From a virus (Duplodnaviria > Caudoviricetes), in the IMG/VR virus record IMGVR_UViG_3300010885_031309: a stretch of 64,000 nt of DNA; one strand, 5' to 3'. A program made the position numbers and the translations under genes. Below, in pieces: positions 29,232-39,429 of this stretch. The notes below the pieces were generated by a model. It had not been told where the DNA came from and searched no databases. It saw only the letters and a program-made list of their open reading frames with translations. Every line of letters begins with the position of its first letter. Position 1 is the first letter of the stretch.

Positions 29232-29417
29232 GTGAACATTGTAATGAACCGCTTAACCACACTGTTAATATTGTTGATAATTAATCTGCTACTAACTGCA
29301 TTTATTTTTATTTTTGGTATACAGTTTAGCACAGACATTAGAGTTGAGTGTTCAAAATGGGTTGAAATACAAACAGGTCAACATACATACAGTGAACGAC
29401 TCTGTTCTACTCTTTAG
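29232..29417 (+). CDS. small membrane-anchored protein
   Basis: Hydrophobic N-terminal helix (LLILLIINLLLTAFIFIF). Confidence 0.5.
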   Translation: MNIVMNRLTTLLILLIINLLLTAFIFIFGIQFSTDIRVECSKWVEIQTGQHTYSERLCSTL

Positions 29418-30255
29418 ATTGTTTACGATTCTTATATATCCAAATGATCAGTGGTATAAGAATGGTAGTTGAAATCCACTGCCAATATTTTAACAACCAC
29501 TGATATGCAATTTGAGTGGTGGTTATTTCAATATCTACTGTCTTCTTTAAAGTTTTGATATGATGCTCGGATTCTTCACCATTAAGCTTTATTAATGCGG
29601 TGATACCAATATCTATTTTATGTTTGCCAGCAGTGAGTGGTTTTAATGTCCATAGCCAACTGGTGTTTTGACTGCTACTTAATATCTGTCGTTCTGGTGT
29701 AATGTTCTTAACTTCAAATGCTGGCGCTGTTATATTAGCGATTAGTATTTTGCTGACTAATACTTGATTAGAGTAAATCTTACCACTTTCTGTCAAATCT
29801 TTTTCTAAGTTCTGTAATTCTTTCTGTAGATTGATTAATAATTCAATACGAACACTGTCATTGATGTTTGCTTTATCTGGTACAGAGAATGACATGTTTG
29901 CTGTACGCAATTGATTTGCTATATCGTCTTCGGATTGTGGTAATACGGTATCAAATTTTTTTGGAACTTTTAATAGTTTTGCAGTTGATGAATTTTTATT
30001 GGTGTTGCGAACAATTGCTGGTGATTTTTCTTCTACTGGTATTACAGCAACTGATGCTGGTCTAACGATTTGAGGTGCTGGAGCTGGCGATCTAAAAATT
30101 GCTGTTGGAGCAGAACGAGATTCCTTTTCATTAGAGTGACCGGAACTTGGCGGATCAGTGTTTATTGTTTCTATGCTTTGTTCAACAACTGTTGGTTTAG
30201 TAATTGTGGAGCATCCAGACAACAAAAACAGCAAGAATAATATTCTGAATAACAT
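29407..30255 (-). CDS. lipoprotein with C-terminal transmembrane helix
   Basis: Signal MLFRILFLLFLLSG|C (lipobox LSGC), Pro/Ser linker, beta-rich domain, WQWISTTILIPLIIWIY TM then basic tail. Minus-strand CATAAATA at 30267-30260. Confidence 0.8.
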   Translation of the reverse strand: MLFRILFLLFLLSGCSTITKPTVVEQSIETINTDPPSSGHSNEKESRSAPTAIFRSPAPAPQIVRPASVAVIPVEEKSPAIVRNTNKNSSTAKLLKVPKKFDTVLPQSEDDIANQLRTANMSFSVPDKANINDSVRIELLINLQKELQNLEKDLTESGKIYSNQVLVSKILIANITAPAFEVKNITPERQILSSSQNTSWLWTLKPLTAGKHKIDIGITALIKLNGEESEHHIKTLKKTVDIEITTTQIAYQWLLKYWQWISTTILIPLIIWIYKNRKQSKE

Positions 30256-30302
30256 ATACTATTTATGGCGCTACTGATACAAATAATTTGGCTTAAAAAT
30301 AC

Positions 30303-30332
30303 TTGACTTCTGAAGTCAGGTTGTATTAGAAT
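30303..30332 (+). promoter_or_regulatory. sigma70-like promoter TTGACT-N18-TAGAAT, followed by an ATAAATA late motif, upstream of tmRNA
   Basis: Sequence at 30303-30337, about 10 nt before the tmRNA acceptor piece. Confidence 0.55.
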
Positions 30333-30343
30333 AAATACTTGAT

Positions 30344-30598
30344 TGCTGTAGAGACCGAAAGGAAAGAAGCAAAGAGAAACGTGTTCCGGACCCGGGGGCA
30401 GTACCCGGCATCTCCACCTAAGTGTATTGGGTATATTTAGGTGGGGATGACACAGTTTCGACGGGGTAAAGAGTAACGGCGCGGACAGCACGGTAGATGA
30501 CGACCGTAAATCGCATAAAATTATAATTGCAAATAACGAGCAATTCCTGATGGCTGCCTAAACCGGCTATCGCGGTAGGACTTACCGGGCAACAGAAA
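30344..30598 (+). ncRNA. ssrA: circularly permuted (two-piece) tmRNA
   Basis: T-arm CCGGG-GGCAGTA-CCCGG plus CATCTCC-A-CC (30392-30418) lies UPSTREAM of the 5' end GGGGATG (30443). The 7-bp acceptor stem has G3.U70. D-loop TTTCGAC. Tag frame 30529-30561 ANNEQFLMAA*. Helix-2 pairings CGGGG/TTCCG and TGCTGT/ACAGCA. Outer ends are approximate. Confidence 0.93.
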
Positions 30599-30604
30599 AA
30601 ACCT

Positions 30605-30634
30605 AAATAGCACCTTCGGGTGCTATTTATTTTT
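30605..30634 (+). terminator. intrinsic terminator after tmRNA
   Basis: AAATAGCACC-TTCG-GGTGCTATTT hairpin followed by ATTTTT. Confidence 0.85.
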
Positions 30635-30694
30635 GTGTCTTTCTTTACTAGTAATCTAAGATTATTCATAAATACTGTGAGGGAGATATATATT

Positions 30695-30853
30695 ATGAAA
30701 CAGAAAAAACTTGTCAGAGAAGTTTATCGTGCTTGCTTAGAACACGATGTAGAAAAACTTGCTGAACTTCGTAAAGAAGAATTTCGCAAAATATTCAAAC
30801 GCAAGGCTGAAGGGAAAGCGTTCAACACACGATGGACATTGGTCAAAATTTAA
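30695..30853 (+). CDS. small basic hypothetical protein (52 aa)
   Basis: CATAAATA at 30667, GAGGGAG RBS, ATG 30695 ([11 protein letters not shown]...). The longer ORF-track start is unlikely. Confidence 0.6.
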
Positions 30854-30880
30854 CCCACACTGAAACTTTCAGTGTAGGTT
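30852..30880 (+). terminator. probable terminator hairpin
   Basis: AACCCACACTGAA-ACT-TTCAGTGTAGGTT. Confidence 0.45.
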
Positions 30881-30906
30881 ATTAGAGTCAAATAAGACAA
30901 TACTTT

Positions 30907-31785
30907 ATGACAAAATATCCAAAAAAATATAGAACAATTTGTATTTCGGATGTTCATCTTGGAACCAAAGATTGTAAAGCCGAGCAACTAAACAATTTTC
31001 TCAAACATAACAGTTGCGAAACACTATATCTAGTAGGCGATATTATAGATGCTTGGAAAATTCAGCAAAATCGTCTTAGATGGAAACAAAGTCACACTAA
31101 TGTAATTCGTCGCATACTAGGGCATGCCAAGAGAGATACTAGAGTTGTATATGTAGCTGGTAACCATGACGAATTTTTAAGACCAATGATGCCCTATGGA
31201 GTTAATTTTGGACAAATTGAATTGTGTAATCAAATAGTTCACTATGGAGTAGACGGTAAAAAATACTTTATTACTCACGGAGATTTATTTGATGGTATTA
31301 CTCGGTTGGCACCCTGGATTAGCTTTTTGGGTGATCGTGCTTATGATGTATTACTTAGATGGAATAGTAGATTTAATTGGATTAGACACAGATTAGGATT
31401 TGGTTATTGGAGTTTAAGTCAGTGGCTAAAACAAAGAGTAAAAAAGGCAGTAGACTTTATATTCAAATTTGAAGAAACTCTAACAGACTATGCTCGCAAG
31501 CGTGGATTTGATGGCGTGATTTGCGGTCACATACACAAAGCGGAAATAAAGTTGATTGATAATGTTTGGTACAGCAATACCGGGGATTGGGTCGAAAGTT
31601 GTACTGCTCTGTGTGAAACACACGATGGTGATTGGATGATTATTCAGTTAGTAGAAGATCAATTTCAGCCGGTGACAGTACGACCCGTCTATAGCGATCA
31701 AATACTAACAGGAGAACTGTGTGTCCTTTGGTTTGAGCAGAAAGGATTTTCTGTTTTACAATATCAAGATCGCGACTCAAAGTAA
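30907..31785 (+). CDS. plcP: metallophosphoesterase, PlcP / LpxH-like family (phospholipase C of lipid remodelling)
   Basis: ISDVHLG, LVGDIID, GNHD, HGDLFD, LGDRAYD, GYWSLS, VICGHIH, NTGDWVESCTAL all match the PlcP pattern. The last ~50 aa are read from the antisense strand of the inserted endonuclease. Confidence 0.75.
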   Translation: MTKYPKKYRTICISDVHLGTKDCKAEQLNNFLKHNSCETLYLVGDIIDAWKIQQNRLRWKQSHTNVIRRILGHAKRDTRVVYVAGNHDEFLRPMMPYGVNFGQIELCNQIVHYGVDGKKYFITHGDLFDGITRLAPWISFLGDRAYDVLLRWNSRFNWIRHRLGFGYWSLSQWLKQRVKKAVDFIFKFEETLTDYARKRGFDGVICGHIHKAEIKLIDNVWYSNTGDWVESCTALCETHDGDWMIIQLVEDQFQPVTVRPVYSDQILTGELCVLWFEQKGFSVLQYQDRDSK

Positions 31786-32605
31786 ATAGACTTTTAATCT
31801 CTACTACTAGGTTATCGTCTGCTACAAAGAAATCACAATAGTATCTACGAGTTTTTTCTTGCCAGTTGTACCATAGTTCTGGCATATCTTTTTTACGATA
31901 TTGTATTTGATTTTCTTGATATAGAGTTTTTAAATAGTCAAACCCAAACGGTTCGTATCCTTGTAGAGATATGACTTTGCCCGTTGATAGTGTATATTCT
32001 TTTCTTTTCTTAAATCTGTTGTAGCATTGCGTTTCAGCAATTTCCGGAACATGAGCAGGGTTATGAACTCCAAACTTATTAAAAAACTTTTCCTGCCAAT
32101 TTATAAAATTATGCGAAATCCCATGTCGTTCCATCATAGTGTTGATTCTTTTTTGTTTTACTTGTTCGTTACTACTGGGATTTTCTACTCCGTATTTTTC
32201 AATAAAATGTTTTTTTCTTTGTTCTGCCATTCCGGGCAGATTCATAGGGTTGTCTACTCCGTATTTTTCCTGTAGAGTTTGTTTGGCTAATTTTTTAATT
32301 CCTTTGCCTGCTACTTTGTAATCAGCAAACATACTATAACCTTCACTCATTCCGGGTATATCTATACTTTCAACAGCCGCTCCAGCTCTCCATTTTCTTT
32401 CCCTACCCGAAATTGGGCATAACGGAACAATATTAGTTTTGTTCCAATAATGCCACAGTTTTCTCTGTAGGTTCCACTCTGCTGGCAAGTTCATTTGAAC
32501 AAATTGGTTTTCTAATTCTTCAAACCAAGAAGCCTTGCGTAAGCTAAAGATTAGTTTCTTCTGTAGAGTAGATGATTGTAGGTATTCTAATATTTGTTGT
32601 TTCAT
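31640..32605 (-). mobile_element. free-standing homing endonuclease (KYGVxNP repeats plus C-terminal PD-(D/E)xK domain)
   Basis: Repeats QEKYGVDNPM / IEKYGVENPSS / KFGVHNP; LQGYEP; YYCDFFVADDNLVVEIKS. Inverted relative to neighbours, with its own minus-strand GATAAATA just upstream of the ATG. Confidence 0.8.
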
Positions 32606-32832: not shown

Positions 32833-33723
32833 ATGCAAAAAAATATACTAATAGTAACCAAACTAGACCGAAACGAATACGAATCCAGTAGATTAGCGGA
32901 TAGTTTTGAGTCAAAGGGAATAAAAACAATAACGGCTCATCCGGATGATTTTGATATTATCGTGGACAAAAACATTCATACTGGATTAAAATATCGCGGT
33001 AAAGATATGAAATTACCCGATCTAGCATTAATTAGATTGGGTGCTGGAATACAACCATTTCAATTAGCGGTTGTTCGTCAATTAGAGCAATCTGGTGTCA
33101 CTTGTGTAAATCAAAGTGTATCAATAGAAACCGTCAAAGACAAACTTCACGCCAGTCAAATTCTTAGTAGACATGGTATATCAATTCCTAATACTATGAT
33201 GGTTAGATTGCCAATAGACGACGACTTGGTGAAAAATAATATAGGGTTTCCATGTGTAGTAAAGGTTGTTACTGGTAGTTATGGCGAGGGCGTATATTTG
33301 TGCGAGAAGCAACGAGATTATCGTAAATTAATGGAATTTATTAATAATTTAGAAAGTAAAAAAACATTAATAGTACAAGAATATTTGGGCGAAAGACCAG
33401 GTGAAGATTTAAGAGTGTTGGTAGTTGGTGGAAAAGTAATCGGAGCAATGAAACGCACTGCACCCGAGGGAGACTTTAGAGCAAATATTACCAACGGCGG
33501 AACTGGACAAAAATTTGAAGTAACTGATGAAATAGACTATTTGGCAAGAGAAACCGCTAGAGTATTAAATTTAGATATTGCCGGAATAGATTTGCTATTT
33601 GATAGTAGAGGGTTCAGAGTTTGTGAGGCAAATAGCAATCCTGGATTTAGTGGTTTTGAAAAATACTGTGGCGTTAATGTGGCAGATTTAATCACTGATT
33701 ATATTAAATTCAAAATTCAATGA
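32833..33723 (+). CDS. rimK: RimK-family ATP-grasp alpha-L-glutamate ligase
   Basis: DKLHASQIL, FPCVVKVVTGSYGEGV, VQEYL, DLRVLVVGG, DFRANITNGG, GIDLL, CEANSNPGF. Confidence 0.9.
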   Translation: MQKNILIVTKLDRNEYESSRLADSFESKGIKTITAHPDDFDIIVDKNIHTGLKYRGKDMKLPDLALIRLGAGIQPFQLAVVRQLEQSGVTCVNQSVSIETVKDKLHASQILSRHGISIPNTMMVRLPIDDDLVKNNIGFPCVVKVVTGSYGEGVYLCEKQRDYRKLMEFINNLESKKTLIVQEYLGERPGEDLRVLVVGGKVIGAMKRTAPEGDFRANITNGGTGQKFEVTDEIDYLARETARVLNLDIAGIDLLFDSRGFRVCEANSNPGFSGFEKYCGVNVADLITDYIKFKIQ

Positions 33724-38188: not shown

Positions 38189-38629
38189 ATGTTAGCCGAC
38201 ACGCTCAAAGTTATGTACGCTTCCACCTTTGTCTATTTCGTGAAATCGTTTGGATTTCATCATAATATTGAGGGTGAAAATTTCCCACAATACCATGAAT
38301 TTTTAAAAAACATCTATGAAGATGCACAAGATACATTAGATCCTCTTGCCGAATTAATTCGTCAATTAGATAGCTATACTCCTGGCAGTATTGCTCGTTT
38401 CTCTGAATTAAGTCAAATATCAGATCAAACAAAGATCCCACGGGCTGAATTAATGATGGCAGAATTATTCCAAGACAACCAGAAGTTGCTAGAAATGTGG
38501 AAGGCAGCATTCCCGCTAGCTGAAGAAGCAAATGAGCAAGGTATTGCTGATTTTATTGCCGGCAGAATTGATGCACATGGCAAGTGGGGTTGGCAACTAC
38601 GCAGCATTATGAAAAAGGAAAGAGCGTGA
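38189..38629 (+). CDS. dps: Dps / ferritin-like DNA-protection protein
   Basis: FHHNIEGENFPQYHEFL..IYED...D.LAELIRQL...HGKWGWQL ferroxidase pattern. Confidence 0.9.
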   Translation: MLADTLKVMYASTFVYFVKSFGFHHNIEGENFPQYHEFLKNIYEDAQDTLDPLAELIRQLDSYTPGSIARFSELSQISDQTKIPRAELMMAELFQDNQKLLEMWKAAFPLAEEANEQGIADFIAGRIDAHGKWGWQLRSIMKKERA

Positions 38630-39429
38630 AGATACGAGATTTATTAGAGAGTAAAATTCTAGTAGAAGGAGTACATGATCCCGCTATATTTAAGGCTGTG
38701 TTTGTAATTGGCGGCCCAGGTAGTGGTAAGAGTAAAGTTAGTGAATTATTGGCATTAAAATCGTTGGGTTTTGTTACTGTTAATAGCGACGAGGCGTTTT
38801 CTCACTTACTAACAAAACACGGTCTTAGTCTAAAAATGCCCCCAGAGGAAGAAACACAGCGTAGCGTTATGCGATCCCGTGCAAAAGAGATAACAGCTAA
38901 TAAAATGCAGCTTGCTCTTGACGGAAGATTGGGTGTTGTAATTGACGGAACAGGTGAAGATTACAGAAAAATAGCTGCAATTCATACAAACTTGAAAGAA
39001 ATGGGATATGAAAGTTTTTTGATCATAGTATATGCGAGTTTGGAAACAGCACTGCGTAGAAATGCAAAACGAGAGCGTAGTGTTCCAGAAACAATTGTTG
39101 AGAAAAAATGGCGCGGCGTACAAGAAAATTTGGATGAATTTTTGTTGACTTTTGAACACAGTACTATCATTGATAACAATGGAAACTTGAATGAATTAAT
39201 TCCACAGACTGAACATGTTTATAAAATGGTTGCACAGTGGTCTAAATCAGAACCCAGTAGTGATGAAGCTCAAACATGGATCAATGATCAGCTTGGTATC
39301 ACTGATGAACCCGACGAATACGATGATGTTGAAGACGACGATATTGAAGACGATGATATTGAAGATGATGAGCATGAAGATGACACTGACAGTGCTGAAG
39401 ATAACGATACTAATACAAAATTAAAATGA
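38626..39429 (+). CDS. P-loop kinase (zeta-toxin/AAA_33-like) with acidic tail
   Basis: GTG start overlapping the dps stop (GTGA). GVHDPAIFKAVFVIGGPGSGKS, VNSDE, VVIDGTG, RNAKRERSVP. Confidence 0.8.
   Translation: MKIRDLLESKILVEGVHDPAIFKAVFVIGGPGSGKSKVSELLALKSLGFVTVNSDEAFSHLLTKHGLSLKMPPEEETQRSVMRSRAKEITANKMQLALDGRLGVVIDGTGEDYRKIAAIHTNLKEMGYESFLIIVYASLETALRRNAKRERSVPETIVEKKWRGVQENLDEFLLTFEHSTIIDNNGNLNELIPQTEHVYKMVAQWSKSEPSSDEAQTWINDQLGITDEPDEYDDVEDDDIEDDDIEDDEHEDDTDSAEDNDTNTKLK
39331..39390 (+). repeat. degenerate 15-bp tandem repeat x4 encoding EDDDI-type acidic tail
   Basis: gaagacgacgatatt / gaagacgatgatatt / gaagatgatgagcat / gaagatgacactgac. Confidence 0.75.

Follow-up and report, generated by a model that had tools for sequence, protein, structure and literature searches.

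The stretch 30303–30634 on the plus strand of the window—the whole 64,000-nt stretch of viral DNA analyzed here—comprises an entire tmRNA gene in circularly permuted form, including a promoter, a tag, and a terminator of its own. The window belongs to an uncultured, T4-related jumbo phage from freshwater, and with high probability the gene is the functional ssrA of this phage. ARAGORN calls a permuted tmRNA at 30327–30652 (+) with the tag ANNEQFLMAA*. The Rfam model RF04321 (tmRNA_permuted) matches the gene with 122.7 bits (E 1.8e-23; cut-off 47), and RF01850 (beta_tmRNA) matches over its full model length with 121.5 bits (E 1.8e-36; cut-off 84). A phage-encoded permuted tmRNA had been proposed in an earlier note that was made from the letters alone and that named Infernal with Rfam models and ARAGORN as the means of checking it; both detectors are independent, they agree, and the scores far exceed the cut-offs. 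The order of the gene is acceptor (3′) piece, 24-nt spacer, and coding (5′) piece, and hence permuted: CATCTCC-A-CC at 30409–18 precedes GGGGATG at 30443–49, as the same note had read it. The sequence and structure determinants of a two-piece tmRNA are shown to be present, with CC in place of CCA and with pseudoknots as candidates, and the gene is very probably functional.

The phage genes of the window include a T4-type baseplate wedge protein, a 4705-aa ORF, nucleases, and a PolB split over two adjacent ORFs. This PolB is 40–50% identical to that of PA5oct, Phosso, Atu_ph07, SCTP-2, and the Rak2-like group, and 65% identical to the PolB of a 236-kb IMG/VR contig, which carries a permuted tmRNA of its own (107.7 bits). 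The public runs in which this DNA occurs belong to three studies and are metagenomes of freshwater or lakes. A megablast search with 6 kb around the tmRNA gene against cultured phages gave no match.

Architecture of the permuted gene

The features of the gene are as follows, all on the plus strand.

30303–30332 (+): sigma-70-type promoter, TTGACT (30303–08)-N18-TAGAAT (30327–32), 10 of 12 matches, best within 29300–31300 (2-kb scan)
30331–30338 (+): late-promoter-like motif ATAAATAC, overlapping the −10 hexamer
about 30339–30345 (+): predicted transcription start
30345–30418 (+): acceptor piece (from Rfam alignments, sequence, and T-arm fold)
30345–49 and 30382–88 (+): 5′ strand of P2, GCUGU and UGU-U-CCG
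30392–30408 (+): T-arm, with T-stem 30392–96/30404–08 and loop GGCAGUA 30397–30403 (from sequence and fold)
30409–15 (+): 3′ strand of the acceptor stem, CAUCUCC
30416 (+): discriminator A (A73)
30417–18 (+): CC, with T at 30419 in place of an encoded terminal A
30419–30442 (+): intervening segment of 24 nt (26 nt if counted from after A73)
30443–30632 (+): coding piece (from ARAGORN and Rfam)
30443–49 (+): 5′ strand of the acceptor stem, GGGGAUG
30450–62 (+): D-loop analogue ACACAGUUUCGAC, ending in UUCGAC (from the Rfam alignment)
30462–68 and 30485–89 (+): 3′ (return) strands of P2, the latter ACAGC
30490–30507 (+): hairpin in the coding piece
30529–30561 (+): tag frame, with GCA resume codon at 30529, ANNEQFLMAA, and TAA stop at 30559–61 (from ARAGORN and Rfam)
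30563–66/30585–88 and 30576–79/30602–05 (+): candidate 3′ pseudoknot, CCGG/CCGG and UAGG/CCUA (by eye)
30591–30597 (+): AACAGAA, loop of the candidate 3′ pseudoknot (from sequence)
30604–30634 (+): intrinsic terminator, 11-bp stem with UUCG loop (30604–29) followed by a T run; −15.2 kcal/mol, z = −6.2

The tRNA-like domain features a 7-bp acceptor stem formed by GGGGAUG and CAUCUCC with a G3-U70 pair, and A73 at 30416. CCA is encoded in 240 of the 242 tmRNA family members among the matches listed, whereas the gene in the window encodes CC; addition of the terminal A after transcription is plausible. The spacer and the acceptor strands together fold into one predicted 19-bp hairpin (−25.6 kcal/mol, z = −7.4), the 26 nt after A73 thus extending the acceptor stem. 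The alanine determinant, the unencoded terminal A, and the joining hairpin had all been described in the earlier note and hold, as do the ARAGORN-called tag ANNEQFLMAA*, the sigma70-like promoter—the top match of the 2-kb scan—the late promoter motif at 30331–38, and the UUCG terminator with its 11-bp stem and T run.

The stems of the domain are conserved as pairs across the family described below. Among the matches listed, acceptor pair 5:68 is Watson–Crick in 202 of 202 genes—those family members whose coding piece could be located downstream—with four pair types in use, and the two outer pairs of the T-stem are paired in 241 of 242 genes in 9–13 combinations. The proximal pairs of P2, which joins the two pieces, are aligned by both Rfam models (RF04321 and RF01850). 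The distal part, GCUGU/ACAGC, is replaced in the closest relatives by AUUGU/ACAAU, GUCGU/ACGAC, and GGCUGU/ACAGCC, that is, by double substitutions. In a register-free test, the helices between acceptor and coding pieces were longer when both came from one gene than when partners were swapped; an exact 5-mer test, which is poorly registered, gave 24 of 93 against 11.3 expected. The minimum-energy fold of the whole precursor was rejected as evidence for P2, the D-loop region mispairing in it with a P2 strand.

The coding piece carries the resume context UAAUU-GCA-AA, which is the consensus of the Rfam model. The frame from GCA to UAA comprises an alanine resume codon, a hydrophobic residue followed by an Ala-Ala end, and the stop. 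The 13-mer of the D-loop analogue, ACACAGUUUCGAC, is identical in the contigs L296 and L300 and in the L284 group. Rfam tmRNA models do not score pseudoknots, and the pseudoknot pairings given for the window are candidates found by eye.

With respect to transcription, members of the tmRNA family carry TTGACA-N17-TATAAATA at the same place as the promoter in the window. The motif ATAAATA occurs in the window in 22 copies on the plus strand and 8 on the minus strand, and about half of the plus-strand copies lie 6–28 nt upstream of gene starts. Several plus-strand copies read GATAAATACT, and the motif is often GATAAATAC, with plus-strand examples at 1889, 20524, 24725, 37645, 38164, 39891, 53740, 56549, and 58751. 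Because of this strand bias and the position before gene starts, ATAAATA is a plausible and likely candidate for a late-promoter element in this phage. The exact T4 late box TATAAATA was considered as the late motif of the window and discarded, as its 4 copies against 8.6 expected amount to no enrichment.

Alpha-type and beta-type features

The T-loop GGCAGTA had been called atypical; this does not hold, as it is the normal alphaproteobacterial form, present in at least 120 bacterial genomes and at least 120 IMG/VR contigs. These numbers come from a scan of IMG/VR contigs and bacterial genomes with a DNA pattern built on the T-loop and the acceptor end, and this one simple pattern thereby recovers at least 120 phage contigs with alphaproteobacterial-signature tmRNAs. 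Of the bacterial matches listed, about 94 are Alphaproteobacteria, mostly Pelagibacteraceae but also Rhodobacterales, Sphingomonadales, Rhizobiales, and Rickettsiales; the non-alphaproteobacterial ones listed are 19 Saccharibacteria and a few odd bins. As judged by these matches, GGCAGUA is the standard T-loop of alphaproteobacterial tmRNAs and is common to a very large phage family. Among the matches listed, 85 of 120 bacterial and 88 of 122 viral members have the motif AACAGAA downstream of the tag, and the gene in the window has both AACAGAA and the GGCRGUA T-loop. A GGCRGUA T-loop and an AACAGAA loop in the 3′ pseudoknot were reportedly described as signatures of alphaproteobacterial tmRNAs by Keiler, Shapiro and Williams in 2000; no mention of the GGCRGUA motif was found in the searchable literature. 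In family members, the GGCRGUA-type T-loop is always paired with a D-loop of the form xAGx, the Rfam consensus D-loop being UGG. One phage contig, L292, has the T-loop UGCGAUU, changed at position 55 only, together with the D-loop UAG. The changes at T-loop position 55 and in the D-loop fit a compensated tertiary contact, as far as sequence can suggest one.

Within the same family, ARAGORN tags of the usual AND...ALAA kind were found in about 60 phage contigs among the matches listed. The intervening segment has a median of 54 nt in phages versus 13 nt in bacteria, with a phage maximum of 236 nt (among the matches listed); phage examples with long spacers are L292 (6615–6770), L034, L051, and L099, from the IMG/VR set L029–L145. 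Some phage spacers start with a ribosome-binding site and an ATG, and in L292 a reading frame begins in the 153-nt spacer and continues into the coding piece. The Saccharibacteria with a GGCRGNA T-loop and the acceptor end CA-N-CUCCACC (L153, L159, L160, L234, and 15 more among the matches listed) are 19 genomes in which ARAGORN called no tmRNA.

The body of the tmRNA in the window points to another type. The best clan model is beta_tmRNA, for the full gene and for the gene trimmed of promoter and terminator alike, with the Rfam clan filter showing the winner only, so that the score of the alpha_tmRNA model (RF01849) stays hidden. In 151 sampled Pseudomonadota genomes, alphaproteobacterial tmRNAs reach a maximum of 72.3 bits against RF01850, and no match lies above its cut-off of 84. 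The likeness to the beta type, judged against the RF01850 model consensus, comprises the spacer ends CCACC-N-AAG...UUUAG-N-UGGGG; GUUUCGAC; a tag similar to ANDE-x-F-x-M-AA and the region after it; and the unencoded terminal A. In contrast, the RF01850 consensus has the T-loop UUCGAUU and the D-loop UGG, where the window has GGCAGUA and CAG. With the alphaproteobacterial type of RF01849 (Caulobacter type), the gene shares the permuted order, the GGCRGUA T-loop, AACAGAA after the tag, and a matching D-loop with A replacing the first G of GG. However, bacterial genes have a median spacer of 13 nt and almost always encode CCA (among the matches listed), whereas the window has 24 nt and CC. The tmRNA in the window is, at the level of these motifs and model scores, a mosaic of alpha-type and beta-type features, because it combines the alpha T-loop and AACAGAA with a best score for the beta model.

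Further phage genes score best with the beta model, like the window: those of the contigs L077, L292, L293, L296, and L300, and that of the cultured phage DLP_6. Other contigs with the same T-loop score best with the alpha model. An alpha T-loop on a beta-like body is found in the window, L077, L293, L296, and L300; L292 joins its half-converted T-loop to a strongly beta-like body (162 bits); and Stenotrophomonas phage DLP_6 features a canonical T-loop on a beta-like body. One reading would arrange these genes as a graded alpha-to-beta series in phages, with the patchy betaproteobacterial two-piece lineage seeded by phages, being of alphaproteobacterial descent rather than the product of an independent permutation, and the gene in the window as a surviving intermediate; we regard this as rather unlikely. 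The mix of types is a lead on the kinship of the three permuted tmRNA lineages and on the transfer of tmRNA genes by phages between bacterial classes.

Proposed function and competing explanations

We infer, as is standard for such a gene, that its RNA would serve ribosome rescue during infection together with host SmpB. Host RNA polymerase would transcribe the gene using the sigma-70-type promoter; the late apparatus of the phage may also do so, using the overlapping ATAAATAC. The resulting precursor of about 290 nt would end at the UUCG terminator. RNase P would cut 5′ of G30443, the 24-nt, stem-closed spacer would be trimmed to ...ACC, and the host CCA-adding enzyme would supply the last A. 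The acceptor piece (about 75–80 nt) and the coding piece (about 190 nt) would then be held together by the acceptor stem and P2. Alanyl-tRNA synthetase would charge the tmRNA via G3-U70 and A73, and host SmpB and EF-Tu would carry it to ribosomes stalled on broken mRNAs. Translation would resume at GCA 30529 and add the degradation tag ANNEQFLMAA, which is of the ClpXP type and has an Ala-Ala end. The likely benefit—the least certain step—would be the recycling of ribosomes and amino acids while phage nucleases and host defenses fragment mRNA. The more specific suggestion of the earlier note, that rescue may counter host ribonucleases or tmRNA cleavage, is neither favored nor disfavored by these findings.

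The window holds no smpB, in line with the earlier note: the lowest E in a six-frame hmmsearch with all filters off was 1.3, for an SmpB profile derived from 20 proteobacterial sequences. Neither was smpB found in five large, incomplete phage contigs carrying such tmRNAs, and function would therefore depend on host SmpB accepting this RNA. A CCA-adding enzyme was not found in the related 236-kb contig, which is 68% complete.

The gene is known from a second strain. Another lake study, independent of the first, yielded a 10.9-kb contig that covers 30200–30760 (561 nt) with 7 differences (98.8% identical) and confirms the assembly at this locus. Every difference is inside the tmRNA gene, and the flanks, about 270 nt, are unchanged. 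Two are in the loop of the spacer hairpin (30428 and 30429), three in P2, and one in the terminator stem; the tRNA-like core has none. In the tag, a codon AAC becomes GAT by two changes, which turns Asn into Asp and the tag into ANDEQFLMAA, Asp being the consensus residue. A30354G and G30483A face each other in a conserved internal loop of P2, possibly as an A-G pair whose two bases have traded places.

As an alternative to ribosome rescue, the RNA could be a decoy or regulator that soaks up host SmpB, alanyl-tRNA synthetase, or EF-Tu, or that senses the load of stalled ribosomes, and host trans-translation would be damped or reprogrammed by it. Phages do carry versions consisting of the tRNA-like domain only and unable to tag (L004, L006, L008, L012, and L019; IMG/VR), a domain like that of DS6A is reported to inhibit tmRNA (PMC4131195), and the missing terminal A could lower charging. 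However, the gene in the window keeps the full tag frame with canonical resume context, stop codon, and Ala-Ala end, and the sole coding change between the strains is the conservative one from Asn to Asp, which speaks for selection on the peptide. This explanation is very unlikely.

The gene could also have been captured recently as a passenger without use to the phage, either neutral cargo or a copy in decay. The distribution of phage tmRNAs is patchy—none was found in PA5oct, and Atu_ph07 is listed without one (PMC11242549)—and the clustering of all strain differences in the gene, with none in the flanks, could mean relaxed constraint. Yet the tRNA-like core is free of these differences, no determinant is damaged, the gene comes with phage-style promoter motifs and a terminator of its own, and intact versions with covarying stems persist in distant relatives of the phage as well as in hundreds of phage contigs. 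Capture as mere cargo is very improbable indeed. The chance is close to nil that the gene is a fragment of a host tmRNA serving as attachment site, or a chimeric assembly with bacterial DNA: many IMG/VR matches to the canonical tmRNA 3′ end do lie at contig ends, like prophage borders, but this gene is complete with both pieces midway in 64 kb of phage genes, the contig of the other study spans it in one piece, and no scanned bacterial genome has this sequence, the best bacterial matches covering the tRNA-like core only.

With respect to RNA data, none of the runs that hold a 5-kb stretch of the window is an RNA run. Two lake runs labeled as metatranscriptomes contain a small share of the gene; one is registered as an RNA run, whereas the other probably represents DNA. 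The same 136-nt contig of a relative comes from each of them and covers 30517–30610 at about 95% identity. This contig is a hint that the tmRNA of the relative is expressed; carried-over DNA is also possible.

Related phage genes and the genomic neighborhood

Sinorhizobium phage Phosso carries a permuted tmRNA of the alpha type at about 349596–350198 (−) of PV764938.1 (L331:297–899), with 113.3 bits. It belongs to a related jumbo lineage, its PolB being 50% identical to that of the window, and its tmRNA shares the permuted order, AACAGAA, a TTGAC-type promoter, and a UUCG terminator; its T-loop is GGCGGUA. Unlike the gene in the window, it has a spacer of about 400 nt, a fully encoded CCA, and the tag ANDNVSTKVALAA. 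ARAGORN misses this tmRNA because of the long spacer, and it is unannotated in the GenBank record. A tmRNA has also been reported for the related Sinorhizobium jumbo phage AP-J-162 (PMC11242549).

The permuted tmRNA of Stenotrophomonas phage DLP_6 lies at L028:1452–1795 (KU682439.2, about 102807–103150) and is likewise unannotated in GenBank. It has the tag ANDDSFAPMAIAA and a canonical T-loop, scores 136.8 bits with RF04321 and 103.7 bits with beta_tmRNA, and adjoins the phage tRNA cluster, just upstream of it. A one-piece tmRNA is normal for the host of DLP_6.

Two-piece tmRNAs of phages are published. Methylophilales phage Melnitz has one (Buchholz et al. 2022, PMC9004378), and the same study counts 133 unique phage tmRNAs, 53 of them two-piece and 50 of these from aquatic phages; in its tree, phage genes fall into the alpha, beta/gamma, and cyanobacterial lineages (PMC9004378). 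Melnitz and the Pelagibacter myophages of that study resemble the window in being T4-related aquatic phages, lytic ones in their case, with a permuted ssrA, an early-type promoter of its own, and alphaproteobacterial signatures, and no phage smpB is reported for them (PMC9004378). In contrast to them, the window belongs to a freshwater jumbo phage, its tmRNA body fits the beta model best, and the terminal A is unencoded; a glutamine riboswitch was not found, the Rfam matches in the window being the two tmRNA models only. For huge phages, tmRNAs and SmpB are listed (Al-Shayeb et al. 2020, PMC7162821), and the tmRNA database includes 79 sequences from phages (PMC11915505).

Publications thus already cover both the two-piece tmRNAs found in T4-like phages of aquatic habitats and the tmRNAs of huge phages (PMC9004378, PMC7162821, PMC11242549), and the gene in the window is a sound annotation and no discovery. 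It has nothing new to say on the mechanism of trans-translation. What it adds is one complete and well-defined example of the phage genes that protein-based annotation pipelines skip, a kind of gene left unannotated in two GenBank phage records, those of DLP_6 and Phosso.

In addition, some phage contigs carry nonpermuted minis, about 85 nt long, that comprise just the tRNA-like domain (L004:3105–3191, L006, L008, L012, L019, and L305). Their layout is GGGGAUG..UAGUUUCGAC, a short helix, a T-arm with GGCGGAA or GGCAGAA, and CAUCUCCACC; they lack a tag frame. A similar domain-only RNA is that of mycobacteriophage DS6A.

The tmRNA gene of the window is preceded by a divergent gene, 29407–30255 (−), which begins with a lipoprotein-type signal (MLFRILFLLFLLSGC...) and whose product has no family match. 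On the other side lie a calcineurin-like metallophosphoesterase directly 3′ of the tmRNA gene, a RimK-type ATP-grasp enzyme (of the family that modifies ribosomal protein S6; Pfam E 3.6e-48), and an ATPase with polynucleotide-kinase-like matches, at 30907–31785 (+), 32833–33723 (+), and 38584–39429 (+) in the order named. These three neighbors may act on RNA or ribosomes. A DUF7487/homing-endonuclease-like gene at 31640–32605 (−) extends over the final 146 nt of the ORF for the metallophosphoesterase.
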